From the IMG/VR virus record IMGVR_UViG_2721755643_000004: 45,530 nucleotides of DNA. One strand, 5' to 3'. The DNA is from a virus. Its lineage: Duplodnaviria > Heunggongvirae > Uroviricota > Caudoviricetes. Made by a program: the position numbers and the translations under genes. The first letter of the stretch is position 1. Each line of letters begins with the position of its first letter. Of this stretch, positions 10,662 to 45,530 are shown one piece after another. The notes under the pieces were generated by a model. That model saw nothing but the letters and a program-made list of their open reading frames with translations. It was not told the DNA's origin and made no database searches.

Positions 10662-11021
10662 TTACGCCGCCTTGCCCAGCGTAAAATCAAAGTGGATGTC
10701 GTCATACGGGAATGACGTTCCGCGCTCGCTTTTTTCCAGTAAACCGTTGCTGATGAGTGCGGTCACGTCAGTATGCACGCTTTTTACATCACGTCCAACC
10801 AGGGCTGCAATTTTTCGGATGGACATTTCTCCGGCACCAGTCATTGCCATCAGAATGTCCATGCGTTTTGGTGTCAGTACCTTATGCATCATTTGCCAGT
10901 CAGGAAATGAAATAACGTTTTCTCTGGTTGCTTTTGCTCCGGTAGCTGCTTCCTGGAACGCAGACAGCACATCAGCCGTGAAATTATCCATTGACTCGAT
11001 TCGGATTGTTACGGTTCTCAT
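10662..11021 (-). CDS. HTH DNA-binding protein, putative antitoxin/regulator (119 aa)
   Basis: Start MRTVTIRIESM 1 nt after stop of upstream ORF; HTH-like MSIRKIAALVGRDVKSV. Confidence 0.55.
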   Translation of the reverse strand: MRTVTIRIESMDNFTADVLSAFQEAATGAKATRENVISFPDWQMMHKVLTPKRMDILMAMTGAGEMSIRKIAALVGRDVKSVHTDVTALISNGLLEKSERGTSFPYDDIHFDFTLGKAA

Positions 11022-11022
11022 G

Positions 11023-11310
11023 TCAGATACCTCTGCGGATGGATTTAACGTCAGCCAGAAAATCAGCGAGCAGTTGTTCAATGGTGACAAAGCTGGTGCT
11101 GACTTCCTGACTACCAATGTGTTTGTGATCGCCTTTACCCCGTTCGTTGTCGTAACGCATCACACACATGCCATCAACGACATAAGCCATGCTGTATTTG
11201 TAGTTGTGCTGGCTACCCAATACAGCAGGCTCCACTTCCCATATGCGGATTCGTATGTATTCAGATTCACCGAGATGACGGATGAACTGTTTATACAGTC
11301 TGGATGGCAT
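11023..11310 (-). CDS. putative toxin-like small protein (95 aa)
   Basis: RBS GAGGAA; tightly coupled to downstream HTH gene; family not recognised with confidence. Confidence 0.5.
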   Translation of the reverse strand: MPSRLYKQFIRHLGESEYIRIRIWEVEPAVLGSQHNYKYSMAYVVDGMCVMRYDNERGKGDHKHIGSQEVSTSFVTIEQLLADFLADVKSIRRGI

Positions 11311-11664
11311 TTAAAGCTTCCTCTGGTTCTTGTTGTAAACAATAACAACAAGGCTTCGCGTTGTCCACAGCTACAACATTTTGATATTGATTCTGCAAGT
11401 CCGGGACGTTACACTGTTCCGGCACCTTATAAAACGGGTGCCGGGATTTGCACCCCGGAATTGATCAAGGCGATATACGACGCGCCAGCGTCTTTTTTAT
11501 CGTCCACGCTCACGCACGCCAGAATTATGGTGGGCTGGGCAGGGGAGCCGAAAGGCTCGCCGGTTTCCTTGATCGCCGGTAGTGCAAACCCTGTTCAGTC
11601 CGCCACCAGCGAGATTTGCACCTCCGGTGGTGGAAGTATTTCACCGATCAAGGAGGCTGCCATT

Positions 11665-16659: not shown

Positions 16660-17030
16660 TGCGTGATATTCAAATGGTTCTTGAACGTTGGGGGGCATGG
16701 GTGGCAAATAATCACGAGGATGTGGAATGGTCATCTGTTGCTGCAGGTTTTAAGGGATTAATCCCTTCGAAAGTAAAATCCCGCCCGCAATGTAGCGATG
16801 ACGATGGCCTGATCATTAGCTCTGCGATGACAGTTCTTAAGAAAAAGGAACCGTATCAATACGAATTACTGGAAATGTATTATGTGTATGGGGTTACATT
16901 ACGGGCGTTGGGGGTAAAACTGGGGATATCACTTAATCAGGTTGTTATCAGACTGCAGAAAGCTGAAGGGTTTATTGACGGTTGTCTGGCAATGTTGGGG
17001 GTATCTTTAGAAATTGATTGTTACATATAG
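16659..17030 (+). CDS. putative late antiterminator Q (QuuD-like, 123 aa)
   Basis: Position before late/lysis region; recalled resemblance to DLP12 QuuD; not verified. Confidence 0.5.
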   Translation: MRDIQMVLERWGAWVANNHEDVEWSSVAAGFKGLIPSKVKSRPQCSDDDGLIISSAMTVLKKKEPYQYELLEMYYVYGVTLRALGVKLGISLNQVVIRLQKAEGFIDGCLAMLGVSLEIDCYI

Positions 17031-17105
17031 TAATAAATTCAATCAAAGTAAATAATCATATTTTATTATAACCTCCTGATGATACCTGTTCATCGGGAGG
17101 TTATT

Positions 17106-17462
17106 ATGGATAAAAATGTAGAGCATGTATTAGTTGATGCAATTGAAAATAAGCAATCTTTAACAGTCGTTTACTTGGGAGGGAGCCAGCCCGGAACATT
17201 AAGGAATATTTCTCCGATTAGTATAAATGGGGATAAATTGCGGGCAAGATGCCATAGTTCTGGAGCAGTAAAGGTTTTCAATCTTGGGAAAATACAGTTA
17301 CCCAGTGACTCCTGCGCGGTATCTATGCACTATGGAGATTTAGAAGTTAAAGCTTATGAGACGATGCAGAGCGTAAATGACAACTTTCATGCCCTTTATC
17401 CTGAAGGTCGATGGGGTGTTGATTTTAATGAGCATCGCTTTGCTTTATTTGATTTTTTTTAA
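17106..17462 (+). CDS. hypothetical protein (118 aa), possible WYL-like beta-barrel
   Basis: Start MDKNVEHV with GGGAGG RBS; approx 38% GC island; motif VVYLGG...RNISPISI...RARCHSSG. Confidence 0.5.
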   Translation: MDKNVEHVLVDAIENKQSLTVVYLGGSQPGTLRNISPISINGDKLRARCHSSGAVKVFNLGKIQLPSDSCAVSMHYGDLEVKAYETMQSVNDNFHALYPEGRWGVDFNEHRFALFDFF

Positions 17463-17489
17463 AACGGGAAACGAAAAAAAACGGCATTT

Positions 17490-17723
17490 ATGGCAATTGA
17501 GTTCAGGGAAAGAGATGAAGAGAAAATAATAACAGGTGTAACAATTGATATTGGTATATCTGGAACAGTGATTTCTGAGAAGTCCCGAATCCCAAAAAGA
17601 CGACCATGGGTAGTGGTTGGTCCCGAACACGGAGAATACAGTACTTATTCAACTTTGGACAAGGCTGCTACAGCGTTTTTTGAGAGGCTTTCGTTGATAG
17701 CATCCGGCCTGGAAGATAATTGA
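17490..17723 (+). CDS. hypothetical protein (77 aa)
   Basis: ORF 27 nt after previous gene in same AT-rich island. Confidence 0.4.
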   Translation: MAIEFRERDEEKIITGVTIDIGISGTVISEKSRIPKRRPWVVVGPEHGEYSTYSTLDKAATAFFERLSLIASGLEDN

Positions 17724-17852
17724 TTTTATGTTTGGTATTCAGAGTTCGCCGTGCTTAAGAAAGTCAAGATTCTAAAAATACTGAATGAGCTACTTGTGTT
17801 ATAACAAAAATGCTATTAGTGTGTTAAGAGTGGTTACTTCGCCACACAACTT

Positions 17853-17878
17853 AAACCCGCCACTGAGCGGGTTTTTTG
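17853..17878 (+). terminator. rho-independent terminator
   Basis: AACCCGC-CACTGA-GCGGGTT followed by TTTTTT. Confidence 0.7.
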
Positions 17879-19452: not shown

Positions 19453-19528
19453 GGCCCTTTAGCTCAGTGGTGAGAGCGAGCGACTCATAATCGCCAGGTC
19501 GCTGGTTCAAGTCCAGCAAGGGCCACCA
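19453..19528 (+). tRNA. tRNA-Ile2 (anticodon CAU, lysidine type; could be scored as Met)
   Basis: Cloverleaf with anticodon loop CUCAUAA; close to E. coli ileX by recollection; CCA encoded. Confidence 0.8.
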
Positions 19529-19529
19529 A

Positions 19530-19606
19530 CCACCACTAGCTCATCCGGATAGAGCATCAACCTTCTAAGTTGACGGTGCGAGGTTCGAGTCCTCGGTGGT
19601 GGGCCA
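19530..19606 (+). tRNA. tRNA-Arg (anticodon UCU)
   Basis: Acceptor CCACCAC/GTGGTGG; anticodon stem TCAAC/GTTGA, loop CTTCTAA; T-arm GGTTCGAGTCC. Confidence 0.8.
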
Positions 19607-19608
19607 GC

Positions 19609-19684
<76 letters not shown>

Positions 19685-19687
19685 TAT

Positions 19688-19762
<75 letters not shown>

Positions 19763-20662: not shown

Positions 20663-21193
20663 ATGACACAAAACTATGAACTGATTGTGAAAGGGATCCG
20701 CAATTTTGAGAATAAAGTTGCGGTAACTTTAGCGTTACGGGACAAAAAACGCTTTGACGGTGAAATTTTTGACCTGGACATCTCGCTGGACCGTGTTGAA
20801 GGTGCCGCGCTGGAGTTTTATGAGGCAGCGGCCAGAATGAGAATCAGACAGGTATTCCTGGATGTTGCTGCCGGGTTATGTGAAGGGGATGAGCAGTCGC
20901 CGGAAAAGCGCCCCATAATTTTAGAGGCGCAGAATGTGTGGATAACCTACAAAGGAAAGCTACCGGGAAGAATTACTGGTTCTCTGAAGACGCCACCGAC
21001 GGCATTGCGGTCAGAAAAAGATGATATTGAATCGCCCATTGAAAAACTGGAGAAAAAATTGTCGGTGCTGATTCCTTCTGAAGATGAAAAAAAACGCCGC
21101 GATGAGCAGTTTGCGGCGTTTTACGATTATTGCATTGAAGTTACTCGCAGGAATTTTGTGAAGATTTTTGAGGAGGGTAAATCTCTTCAGTAA
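20663..21193 (+). CDS. hypothetical acidic cytoplasmic protein (176 aa) inserted between holin and endolysin
   Basis: RBS GGGGAGAG; begins 5 nt after holin stop. Confidence 0.6.
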   Translation: MTQNYELIVKGIRNFENKVAVTLALRDKKRFDGEIFDLDISLDRVEGAALEFYEAAARMRIRQVFLDVAAGLCEGDEQSPEKRPIILEAQNVWITYKGKLPGRITGSLKTPPTALRSEKDDIESPIEKLEKKLSVLIPSEDEKKRRDEQFAAFYDYCIEVTRRNFVKIFEEGKSLQ

Positions 21194-42300: not shown

Positions 42301-42805
42301 AGGAACGCTCAACAATGTCACGATTAACCAGAACTGTACGATTAAGGGCATACTGGAGGCGACCCAGGTCAGAGGGGATTTCGTTAAAGCTGTATCAAAA
42401 GCCTTCCCGAAAAAAGTCGGTACGTGGGGTAACACGGAAACACCAAACGGTACGGTTACAGTCACCATCAGCGATGATCATAACTTTGACCGCCAGATTA
42501 TTATTCCGCCCATTATTTTTAACGGTATAGCGTATGACGCTCCGGGGAGCGGAAATAACCTAGGAGGCACGCGATACACGGGTTATGGTTTTGAAGTTCG
42601 CAAAAACGGCGTATTAATCGCATCCAGAGAAACTAAAGGGGCCATTCCCGGTAGTTACAGTGCAGTTATTGATATGCCTAGTGGTGGTGGTAGCGTCACT
42701 CTGGAGTTTAAGATTTTCCAGAAAGGCAATCAGGGGGCAGGCAATATCACCGACTGTACGGTGATTGTGACCAAAAAAGCGGCTTCCGGCATCAGTATTC
42801 GTTGA
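39308..42805 (+). CDS. J: central tail fibre / host specificity protein gpJ (1165 aa)
   Basis: Intact 3.5-kb ORF, lambda J-like. Confidence 0.9.
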
Positions 42806-42825
42806 AATTGTTATAACCCATATAA

Positions 42826-42851
42826 GGGCACCAGAAATGGTGCCTTTTTTA
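42826..42851 (+). terminator. rho-independent terminator after J
   Basis: GGCACC-AGAAAT-GGTGCC followed by TTTTTT. Confidence 0.75.
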
Positions 42852-42874
42852 TTGCAGAAAAGCGAGAGGTAATT

Positions 42875-43474
42875 ATGCGTAAACTTTATGCCGCCATTTT
42901 GTCCGCAGCCATTTGTCTGGCCGTATCCGGTGCGCCTGCATGGGCATCTGAACATCAGTCCACGCTGAGCGCGGGGTATCTTCATGCCTCGACGAACGTT
43001 CCCGGCAGCGATGATCTTAACGGGATTAACGTGAAATACCGTTATGAGTTTACGGACACACTGGGGCTGGTGACGTCATTCAGCTATGCAGGAGACAAGA
43101 ATCGCCAGCTTACCCGTTACAGCGATACCCGCTGGCATGAGGATTCCGTGTGTAACCGCTGGTTCAGCGTGATGGCGGGGCCGTCTGTGCGCGTGAATGA
43201 ATGGTTCAGCGCGTATGCGATGGCGGGCGTGGCTTACAGCCGTGTGTCGACCTTCTCCGGGGATTATCTCCGCGTAACTGACAACAAGGGGAAAACGCAC
43301 GATGTGCTGACCGGGAGTGATGACGGTCGCCACAGCAACACGTCTCTGGCGTGGGGAGCTGGCGTGCAGTTTAACCCGACCGAATCCGTGGCCGTTGACG
43401 TCGCTTATGAAGGCTCCGGCAGCGGTGACTGGCGTACCAACAGTTTCATCGTGGGTGTCGGTTATAAATTCTGA
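42875..43474 (+). CDS. lom: Lom/Ail-family outer membrane beta-barrel protein (199 aa)
   Basis: Signal peptide; C-terminal GYKF; moron position after J. Confidence 0.85.
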
Positions 43475-43499
43475 TTAGCCAGGTAACACAGTGTTATGA

Positions 43500-43527
43500 C
43501 AGCCCGCCGTTTCAGGCGGGCTTTTTG
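43500..43527 (+). terminator. rho-independent terminator after lom
   Basis: AGCCCGCC-GTTTCAG-GCGGGCT followed by TTTTT. Confidence 0.75.
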
Positions 43528-43537
43528 TGGGGTGAAT

Positions 43538-44953
43538 ATGGCAGTAAAGATTTCAGGTGTACTGAAAGATGGGGCGGGTAAACCTGTCGTAAATTGTGCG
43601 ATTGAACTGCGGGCCAGAAGAACCAGTCCGACCGTTGTGGCACACGTTGTTGCCACTTGCGTGACGGACAATAACGGTGCTTATGTGATTGAGGCTGAGC
43701 CGGGGTATTACGAGGTTGCGCTTCACTGTAACGGCTGGCAGCCAACCCGTGTCGGGGATATTGATGTGGCACCGACTGATGCACCGGGGACACTGAACGC
43801 GTTTCTGAATGCACCAAAGGATGGTGATTTACGTCCGGAGGTGATGAAGCGCTTTGAGGAAATGGTGGCGCAGGCGCAGCAGAGTGCCGGGGCTGCAGCC
43901 GGAAACGCACAGCAGACGGCGCAGGATGTGGCGGCAGCCGCAACGGCCCGTGATGATGCACAACGTTTTGCGGAGAATGCCAGACAGGATGCAGTTGCCA
44001 CTGCAGAGGACAGAAAGGCCACTGCGGAAGACGTGAAAAGCACGGGGAAAAACGCCGTCTTATCCGGTCAGCGTGCACAGGCAGCCGCAGGTTATGCCCG
44101 CGCAGCAGAACAGGCCAAAAATGACATTGATGCTGCGCTGACCGGCACTCTGAAAACGGCTAACCATCTGTCTGAAATCGCAGCAGCAGGCGAAAAGGCA
44201 CAACAGAAGTCCCGGGATAGTCTGGGGCTGAAAAGTGCAGCCACGATGGAAGCACAGAGCGACATTTACGACCGGACAAAAGGCCGTCTGGCGATACCCG
44301 GCGCATTCGGCTTTGGGCGTGCTTTTCTGTCTGAAGATGTTATCCGTTTTGACACTAAGAGTGATTTCCTGGCCTGGGTAAGGAATGCGCTGCCAGGTGA
44401 ATATTCCGTTGCTGGCCCCTACGACATCATCATACCCGACACACGGTTTGAAGGGGTGCTCAGCATCCGGTGGACTGATGCACACCCTGAGACAACAGAA
44501 CCGCGGTGCAGAGCCAAATCCCTTACTTTTTACGGCATTAACGGCCCCATTTATCACACCCGCTACTGCTACTGGCCCATATCCAGACTGACTGACTGGG
44601 TGAAAATAAATATAACCACAGAAGATATTATTTACAGAATCGTGGCGAGCTCTGTCCGCAACAGATGGGGAGACCCTGACATTGGCGGGCTGATTATTGC
44701 TGCGTACCAGGGAGAAGCTGACGGTGATAAAGTCATCAGACTTGTCAGGGGGCAGTCATACAGAGGCTCACGACTGGGACCGGTGGGGATTTCAGTGCCC
44801 AGTACTCCCACCGGAACGTATATAGCATCCCCACAATTTTTCATTACGGGATGTTCAGAGCATTCATTACCGGGGTCATATTGCGCCCTGTCCGGGGTGC
44901 CGGATGCACATGTCTCTGGCGCAATGCCCGGGCTTTTTATTCGCACATCGTGA
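43538..44953 (+). CDS. stf: side tail fibre protein (471 aa)
   Basis: Start MAVKISGVLKDG with GGGGTG RBS; Ala/Gln-rich shaft; distinct C-terminal domain. Confidence 0.7.
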   Translation: MAVKISGVLKDGAGKPVVNCAIELRARRTSPTVVAHVVATCVTDNNGAYVIEAEPGYYEVALHCNGWQPTRVGDIDVAPTDAPGTLNAFLNAPKDGDLRPEVMKRFEEMVAQAQQSAGAAAGNAQQTAQDVAAAATARDDAQRFAENARQDAVATAEDRKATAEDVKSTGKNAVLSGQRAQAAAGYARAAEQAKNDIDAALTGTLKTANHLSEIAAAGEKAQQKSRDSLGLKSAATMEAQSDIYDRTKGRLAIPGAFGFGRAFLSEDVIRFDTKSDFLAWVRNALPGEYSVAGPYDIIIPDTRFEGVLSIRWTDAHPETTEPRCRAKSLTFYGINGPIYHTRYCYWPISRLTDWVKINITTEDIIYRIVASSVRNRWGDPDIGGLIIAAYQGEADGDKVIRLVRGQSYRGSRLGPVGISVPSTPTGTYIASPQFFITGCSEHSLPGSYCALSGVPDAHVSGAMPGLFIRTS

Positions 44954-44963
44954 GGAATGCACC

Positions 44964-45530
44964 GTGGAAATTAAAAAAATCATTAATCCCCGTTATACCG
45001 AAAGTGGCGCAGTAGACTGTGACGTTTTTTTTGACGACAGGGACCAGGCAGTCCCCTACACAGCCACCGCTGATGATGTCGCACCGACGGGTCAGCGAAT
45101 CTGGCAGGAACTGCAAAGCGGCAAATGGGGTGAGATAGCCCCATTCACTGTGACACCAGAAATGCTGGAAGCGGCCAGAGAGGCCAGACGTCAGGGAATT
45201 GAAGCATGGCGCACAGAACAGGAGGCGAAGCCGTTCACGTTTGAATGGAACGGTCGTATCTGGAATGCTGGCCCCGACTCACTGGGCCGCCTGTCCCCGG
45301 TAGTCATGCTGGCAAAATCTGTCACAGCACAAACACATATGGCGTGGAGCGATGCCGATAATCAGCAGGTGAAACTGTCGATGCCGGAACTGGAAGAACT
45401 GGCGGCAGCAATGGTGCAGGCGCAGGTCGATCGCAATGACGAGATTTATCAACGTCAGCGGGAGATGAAGGAAGAACTGAATAACCTGGAGGATTTGGGT
45501 TCAATCCGAGCGTTTGGTATTGGCCAATAA
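44964..45530 (+). CDS. tfa: tail fibre assembly chaperone Tfa-like (188 aa, GTG start)
   Basis: Follows stf; GAGGAA RBS; stop at last codon of window. Confidence 0.6.
   Translation: MEIKKIINPRYTESGAVDCDVFFDDRDQAVPYTATADDVAPTGQRIWQELQSGKWGEIAPFTVTPEMLEAAREARRQGIEAWRTEQEAKPFTFEWNGRIWNAGPDSLGRLSPVVMLAKSVTAQTHMAWSDADNQQVKLSMPELEELAAAMVQAQVDRNDEIYQRQREMKEELNNLEDLGSIRAFGIGQ

Follow-up and report, generated by a model that had tools for sequence, protein, structure and literature searches.

The window analysed here is a 45,530-nucleotide stretch of DNA from a virus of the class Caudoviricetes (IMG/VR record IMGVR_UViG_2721755643_000004), and our subject is an AT-rich locus between the gene for the antiterminator Q and the putative late promoter PR′, where two short open reading frames (ORFs) follow each other on the plus strand. 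ORF1 (17106-17462, 118 codons) carries GGGAGG at 17095-17100, 5 nt before its ATG; ORF2 (17490-17723, 77 codons) starts with an ATG 27 nt past the ORF1 stop. A preliminary description of this DNA had located both correctly, and had taken them for two small proteins that belong to no assignable family. We found that they share one reading frame, and that all that stands between them is one TAA (17460-17462) followed by nine sense codons. On the profile of phrog_8498 (205 positions), ORF1 occupies positions 1-118 (E 7e-70) and ORF2 positions 129-205 (E 3e-41), and the two together match the family over its full length. At the same locus Escherichia coli S88 and E47 have a single 618-nt coding sequence (CDS), WP_000360285.1, which RefSeq labels ‘WYL domain-containing protein’. 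Compared with these alleles, the window carries an A to T change at 17460 and two further differences within the gene, both synonymous; its translation equals the S88 protein except for the stop. The two ‘small proteins’ are, thus, almost certainly the halves of one disrupted 205-aa gene.

The interrupted codon is one that the family keeps. Lys119, encoded by AAA in the intact alleles, is at least 90% conserved in an alignment of 132 sequences, where it belongs to a conserved FKNGK motif, and relatives at 23-36% identity also encode a single chain. The E. coli allele aligns without indels to a copy with 72% amino-acid identity, and the ratio of nonsynonymous to synonymous substitution rates (dN/dS) over the whole length is 0.23. 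It is low in both halves (0.21 for codons 1-118 and 0.26 for codons 119-205), so that purifying selection has acted on the two as on a single protein. With an in-frame stop where close intact orthologues and the family have a conserved sense codon, the window copy is, judging from the sequence, most likely a pseudogene of a stand-alone WYL cargo gene. It would give at most a 118-aa fragment consisting of the WYL barrel and a broken half-domain. Taken as a whole, the locus is very probably explained by a single WYL cargo gene between Q and PR′, inactivated here by the change of Lys119 to TAA.

To place this allele among others we used 5,426 complete E. coli genomes, 51 of which carry the locus. 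One 205-aa CDS is present in 46 of the 51. Three genomes are identical to the window at the locus and have the split gene, annotated by PGAP as two CDSs; in one genome an A8-to-A9 frameshift splits the gene 14 nt beyond the nonsense site, and in another it is interrupted by ISKpn26, making three independent lesions in 5 of the 51 genomes. Two of the independent disruptions lie in the same homopolymer-rich linker (Table 1). Among contig records, the 118-aa product occurs on ~90 and the 77-aa sequence on ~169. A sequencing error as the cause of the TAA was rejected, since the nonsense allele is found in three complete genomes and on ~90 contigs.

Two other readings of the split were weighed. A genuine two-gene module, in which the 118-aa WYL protein would act with a 77-aa partner, for instance as toxin and antitoxin or as sensor and effector, could draw on the PGAP annotation of two CDSs in the three window-identical genomes, on the contig records of both products and on the ATG of ORF2. 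We regard it as very unlikely, because the ORFs share a frame with one stop between them, because 46 of the 51 genomes and the relatives at 23-36% identity encode one chain, and because the stop would fall inside a beta-sheet domain of the predicted structure (below) and not at its linker of residues 66-86. In addition, no Shine-Dalgarno sequence lies in the 20 nt that precede 17490 (AACGAAAAAAAACGGCATTT), and Met129 is not conserved in the family. Slightly less probable still is programmed recoding, in which readthrough of the TAA or slippage on the T8 and A-rich tracts would yield a short and a full-length product. The stop does lie amid homopolymers (T8 before it, A4 and then A8 after it) that are slippery in principle. 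However, the intact alleles have a sense codon at this place, so the ancestral state needs no recoding, and the alternative frame that spans the stop closes at 17529 and cannot recover the C-terminus. In E. coli, moreover, a TAA with a following A makes a strong stop context.

Table 1. Features at and around the interrupted gene, with their positions in the window
Feature	Position	Strand	Basis or detail
Antiterminator Q gene, 123 aa	16659..17030	+	PF06530, E 4.5e-48
AT-rich mosaic module	16780..17822	.	3′ part of Q, cargo gene and promoter-upstream part of PR′
15-bp RNA hairpin burying the Shine-Dalgarno sequence	17068..17104	+	arms 17068-17082 and 17090-17104; loop 17083-17089
Gene for WYL plus C-terminal domain (phrog_8498), 205 codons, interrupted in frame	17106..17723	+	phrog_8498, intact CDS, alignment, dN/dS
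Homopolymer-rich linker	17453..17481	+	T8A4 in the window against T7A5 in the intact alleles; A8 tract 17474-17481
TAA nonsense codon	17460..17462	+	A to T at 17460; AAA, Lys119 of the FKNGK motif, in intact alleles
PR′-type late promoter (inferred)	17794..17830	+	homology with Sp5, phiP27, SfII and PhiR40_1
GC-rich hairpin plus T6, intrinsic-terminator-like	17853..17878	+	8-bp stem, 6-nt loop

Predicted fold and family of the intact protein

We modelled the intact protein with AlphaFold (AF2) from the 132-sequence alignment, obtaining a mean pLDDT (predicted local distance difference test) of 86.3. In the model, residues 3-63 form a helix followed by a five-strand barrel, the arrangement of an Sm/SH3-like barrel after a helix that defines WYL domains. 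Residues 66-86 are a poorly modelled linker between domains, and residues 87-204 an alpha/beta/alpha domain with a low-confidence insertion at 134-167. This C-terminal domain is composed of a helix (87-97), five strands (104-107, 111-117, 123-133, 168-171 and 178-181) and a closing helix (184-204); the stop of the window would fall between strands 111-117 and 123-133, inside the domain and not at a domain boundary. The C-terminal domain has no detectable relatives, AlphaFold-database relatives not having been examined, and BFVD gave no match at E≤1e-3.

The assignment of the barrel is borne out by profile comparisons. Pfam PF13280 scores 12.5-20.0 bits in five family members, in the same register (~residues 6-64) though below the gathering threshold of 21.8; a profile search of the PDB found DriD at E 1e-4 (73 residues aligned at 26% identity), and hhalign gave 94% probability to residues 136-209 of E. 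coli CapW. The resemblance to WYL noticed in the preliminary description is real, and AlphaFold and hhalign support a WYL barrel in the intact protein. The W-Y-L tripeptide itself is missing, the aligned strand reading K-[LV]-R-A-R-C in the phrog_8498 family; DriD has a degenerate NYL, so the tripeptide is not strictly required. No helix-turn-helix was matched by Pfam in 15 members (5 typical and 10 longer), and the protein starts 2 residues before the WYL helix. Among the models of PADLOC v2, solely weak Cas-associated WYL models responded (E 2.6e-5 to 1e-2).

DriD, the WYL activator of Caulobacter that is activated by single-stranded DNA (ssDNA), is the best match in both sequence and fold, and has the motif Y-x-G-G-S-x-P-G-x-x-R-x-[IV]-x-P, which takes in its ssDNA contacts Y168, S172 and R178, in common with phrog_8498. 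In contrast to DriD, however, the phrog_8498 protein has neither a DNA-binding domain nor a three-helix bundle, and the DriD linker/WCX contacts Y240 and R288 do not map onto it. It differs likewise from CapW and BrxR, the repressors of CBASS and BREX, which join winged helix-turn-helix (wHTH), WYL and WCX domains: it lacks the wHTH and any detectable WCX, and its gene, with no recurrent neighbour at 13 loci, adjoins no operon to regulate. The phrog_8498 protein therefore cannot act as a transcription factor. DriD and PafBC are of the same wHTH-WYL-WCX class as CapW and BrxR, in which the wHTH is N-terminal and WCX serves for dimerisation at the C-terminus. WYL1, the Cas13d accessory, and the PIF1-WYL helicases have ribbon-helix-helix or helicase partner domains, unlike phrog_8498, and their Cas or helicase context is absent at the window locus. 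To our knowledge, the sensor of every WYL protein characterised so far is coupled to a domain that binds DNA or RNA or is enzymatic. The intact protein departs from this as an architectural variant that is new among WYL sensors: in its family, which is widespread and borne by mobile elements, the sensor is paired only with an unknown alpha/beta domain.

A profile built from five full-length members matched the representatives of 957 clusters at E≤1e-3, of which 192 reached E≤1e-30 (clusters at 50% identity; members of ~195 aa). Among the 150 matches listed, nearly all are 187-210 aa long and align end to end. A protein search of the phage collection returned only two distant phage homologues. 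Longer members also exist, one with zinc ribbons and transmembrane helices and one sub-branch with an extra unknown domain. The former (P0118) has the zinc ribbons and two predicted transmembrane helices behind the family module; in the latter, Pseudoalteromonas phage PY3_2 (L021 2006-3115) and member P0097 share an extra C-terminal domain of ~170 aa.

The putative late promoter and the AT-rich module

The preliminary description had set the locus in the hotspot between Q and S, followed by a clean terminator at 17853-17878. By homology to the mapped PR′ of the Stx phage Sp5, the gene would lie before the late promoter. The −35-like (TTGTGT, 17794-17799) and −10-like (TAGTGT, 17817-17822) hexamers are separated by a spacer that contains AAAAAT and measures 17 nt in the window and 16 nt in Sp5. 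Downstream of the −10 come GTT (GAT in Sp5), AAGAGTGGTTAC and then a hairpin with a T-run, an arrangement common to Sp5, phiP27, SfII and PhiR40_1. In Sp5, 258 nt separate the PR′ start site from tR′, and RNase E cleaves GUAUU between GU and AUU at +173 (PMC7547250). These published distances fit a start 7 nt past the −10, at the fourth base of AAGAGTGG; with that start, +258 is the end of the T-run of the second Sp5 terminator, and GUAUU has its A at +174. We infer that late transcription in the window begins near 17829, which puts the hairpin at 17853-17878 at about +24 to +49, where it would be the promoter-proximal hairpin of the late leader. The block from ~17805 on is conserved in 100 phage records and ~1200 E. 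coli genomes. A consensus scan missed both PR′ and the terminator at 17853-17878.

With PR′ so placed between the gene and the hairpin, the cargo gene would be upstream of PR′ and outside the late operon. The hairpin of the preliminary description is real, with its 8-bp stem, 6-nt loop and T6, but it would not be the gene's own terminator, as PR′ would intervene. The Sp5 prophage of strain Sakai illustrates the difference: the promoter and the initial transcribed block of its PR′/StxS leader, including the hairpin, are homologous to 17794-17878 of the window, but in Sp5 the PR′ block directly follows the Q stop codon, whereas in the window 764 nt of cargo (17031-17793) lie between.

The drop in GC content described earlier, to ~38% against ~50%, was measured as 0.384 for 17031-17760 against 0.5135 for the window, a value in the bottom 0.56% of all windows of 730 bp. 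The AT-rich stretch is larger than had been described, reaching from ~16780, inside Q, to ~17822 (GC 0.387). Its left break is inside Q; on the right, homology with other phages resumes at 17805-17822. A distant-sensitivity blastn search of the phage collection found no phage record with the island. A lambdoid moron would be cargo of foreign composition in a variable slot, equipped with a promoter and a terminator of its own. Composition and slot agree with this, and a hairpin follows the gene; the consensus scan showed no promoter.

The AT-rich 3′ two-thirds of Q and the cargo gene belong to one mosaic module. The segment 16780-17075, which comprises this part of Q and the spacer, occurs in all 51 E. 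coli genomes with the WYL gene and in none without it, and the 72%-identical copy of the gene also directly follows a Q homologue. On the simplest reading, the gene is linked to its Q allele (51/51) because it is caught between Q and that part of PR′ which is specific to Q, two elements that must be inherited jointly.

The ribosome-binding site of the gene appears to be masked. In the predicted hairpin, anti-Shine-Dalgarno CCTCC pairs with GGGAGG (17095-17100), and the ATG is 2 nt past the stem. RNA of 17050-17125 (76 nt) folds at −26.1 kcal/mol (z −5.4), and none of 200 shuffles folds as well. In the 72%-identical copy the 5′ anti-Shine-Dalgarno arm is kept at 12 of 13 positions, and the spacer upstream has diverged; there are no compensatory double changes between the two copies, and support for the hairpin is therefore moderate. 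Nothing in Rfam was above threshold for the hairpins or the leader. A translational switch is conceivable: transcription starting inside the 5′ arm would free the Shine-Dalgarno sequence, and transcripts reading through from Q may stay masked.

Elsewhere in the window, the prophage carries an IS600-like insertion and two pseudogenes besides the WYL gene. Signs of decay and of addiction modules lie at 4550-5706, 6222-6440, 10662-11625 and 20663-20998; they include the IS600-like element, a gene for a ParE-like toxin (PF24732, E 1.5e-17) and a ydfR pseudogene, and among them a TumE/HVO_A0114 pair overlaps a truncated ash gene. A second AT-rich island (6534-7760; 730-bp windows with GC≤0.40) is beside a LexA-family repressor gene (8276-8932, minus strand), a position that resembles that of rexAB-type cargo expressed in lysogens. 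Pfam gave no match for its ORFs at 6627-6986 and at 7182-7388 (minus strand), and 7730-8179 encodes an HTH_3 protein. Four tRNA genes are located at 19453-19762 between a methylase and the holin: one with a CAT anticodon (Met according to ARAGORN, Ile according to RefSeq), Arg-TCT, Thr-TGT and Gly-TCC.

Identity of the window with the RMDEC332 prophage was considered and rejected. The two are 99% identical overall (42 kb) and 100% identical at the WYL locus, and 42337-45530, with lom and the tail-fibre end, is only ~91-97% identical. Given this divergence of the tail end, the source of the window is a close relative that carries a different host-range module.

Candidate roles of the intact protein

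Related phages hold different cargo in the same slot between Q and PR′, in support of the earlier view of the region as accessory cargo beside Q. In phiP27 the slot contains a gene for a GIY-YIG protein that matches PD-Lambda-1 (E 2e-89; phiP27 L22; L022 251-1480). SfII has two reverse-strand genes, one of which (SfII_50; L023 415-1437) matches the defence candidate PDC-M53A (E 2e-32), and PhiR40_1 has a reverse 148-aa ORF with no function assigned; the slot of Sp5 is empty. The PD-Lambda-1 and PDC-M53 cargos share their position with the WYL gene, but the proteins are unrelated to its product. By analogy with these two defence-type cargos, the slot looks like a defence hotspot, much as the preliminary description had proposed for this region.

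Relatives of the gene occupy varied places. A distant relative adjoins a cI-like/cro pair in a prophage; the one in Pseudoalteromonas phage PY3, which has a further domain fused to it, is between an integrase and a LexA-type repressor; others are found behind tail-fibre-like genes in a phage contig, in an integrative and conjugative element (ICE), beside nSTAND3/Mrr and SMC-like genes, and in islands of small genes that include one for a SUKH immunity protein. The neighbour statistics cover 13 loci (a genome scan with a 5-sequence alignment gave 7), and no neighbour recurs among them. The conserved pair expected in the preliminary description is, therefore, not seen, with one CDS annotated in 46 of the 51 genomes and no partner kept across the family. 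The phrog_8498 gene is a single-gene module.

The residues of the barrel offer some indication of a ligand. DriD touches the ssDNA backbone through Y168, S172 and R178, and the R176A-R178A substitution abolishes binding (PMC9186387). Y168, S172 and R178 align to Y23, S27 and R33 of the phrog_8498 family, where Y23 and R33 are invariant and S27 is at least 90% conserved, and the CapW pocket residues R184 and R200 (PMC11662680) align to R46 and K62. On this alignment, we give about even weight to the intact protein having an ssDNA-type ligand. It would then bind short ssDNA, or a similar nucleic-acid ligand, in the WYL pocket, with the C-terminal alpha/beta domain relaying the signal either through protein-protein contact or by oligomerising; as a prophage-encoded single-gene sensor, it would protect the lysogen against other phages.

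Such a defence role for the lysogen, argued from position, is the role that we tentatively place ahead of the others, although we hold it with clearly less than even confidence. It is favoured because two slot cargos match known or candidate defence genes and because distant relatives are found within lysogeny modules, on an ICE and within islands of defence genes. Rather improbable, but worth weighing, is that the protein is an anti-defence decoy, a WYL protein without a helix-turn-helix that soaks up the short ssDNA arising in induction and replication, the signal by which CapW- or BrxR-controlled systems are derepressed. It would have the same class of ligand pocket as CapW, BrxR and DriD without a DNA-binding output, relatives are present on an ICE and other mobile elements, co-transcription with Q in lytic growth is possible, and a phage would have a motive, as CapW, once set off by lambda induction, limits the yield of phage (PMC11662680). 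However, the slot-mates match known or candidate defence genes and not anti-defence ones, several relatives reside in lysogeny modules or in chromosomal islands of defence or immunity genes, a protein expressed after Q would come late compared with CapW derepression at 15-30 min, and there is no evidence of a sponge-like oligomer. We consider it quite unlikely that the gene regulates the development of the phage itself, in a manner tied to Q, for example by coupling ssDNA from replication or DNA damage to the time at which late transcription sets in. In all 51 genomes the gene accompanies this Q allele, a Q homologue still precedes it after ~0.8 synonymous substitutions per site, and it is directly upstream of PR′, but physical trapping between Q and its binding site accounts for this linkage. 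Moreover, distant family members are not beside Q, 5 of the 51 prophages have lost the gene via three independent lesions, and Sp5 has PR′ straight after Q with no such gene.

Several observations count against parts of the picture of an inactivated, ssDNA-sensing defence gene. PADLOC, NCBIfam and Pfam yield nothing past sub-threshold WYL matches. DriD R176 aligns to the non-conserved T31, and CapW R180, which falls in a 4-residue deletion, is not conserved either. The consensus scan found no plus-strand promoter for the gene, and its Shine-Dalgarno sequence is masked, so that expression in the lysogen is a supposition. The argument for a hotspot draws on three other phages only, and the truncated allele, present on ~90 contigs, is not quickly purged.

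For the window, the outcome is a correction: two presumed genes become one probable pseudogene, and the late promoter probably lies on the other side of it than had been assumed. The natural K119-to-stop and frameshift alleles provide ready-made loss-of-function controls. More speculatively, and with low confidence, the family may be a new class of stand-alone WYL sensors of mobile elements that would bind the ssDNA alarm signal with no DNA-binding output, serving either as single-gene defences of the lysogen by way of a new C-terminal effector or adaptor domain, or as decoys that mute WYL-controlled immunity of the host. Presence or absence of the anti-Shine-Dalgarno arm in the transcript might then switch their translation. 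If the intact protein binds ssDNA, it would offer a test of how phages use, or interfere with, the ssDNA alarm signal for CBASS and BREX.
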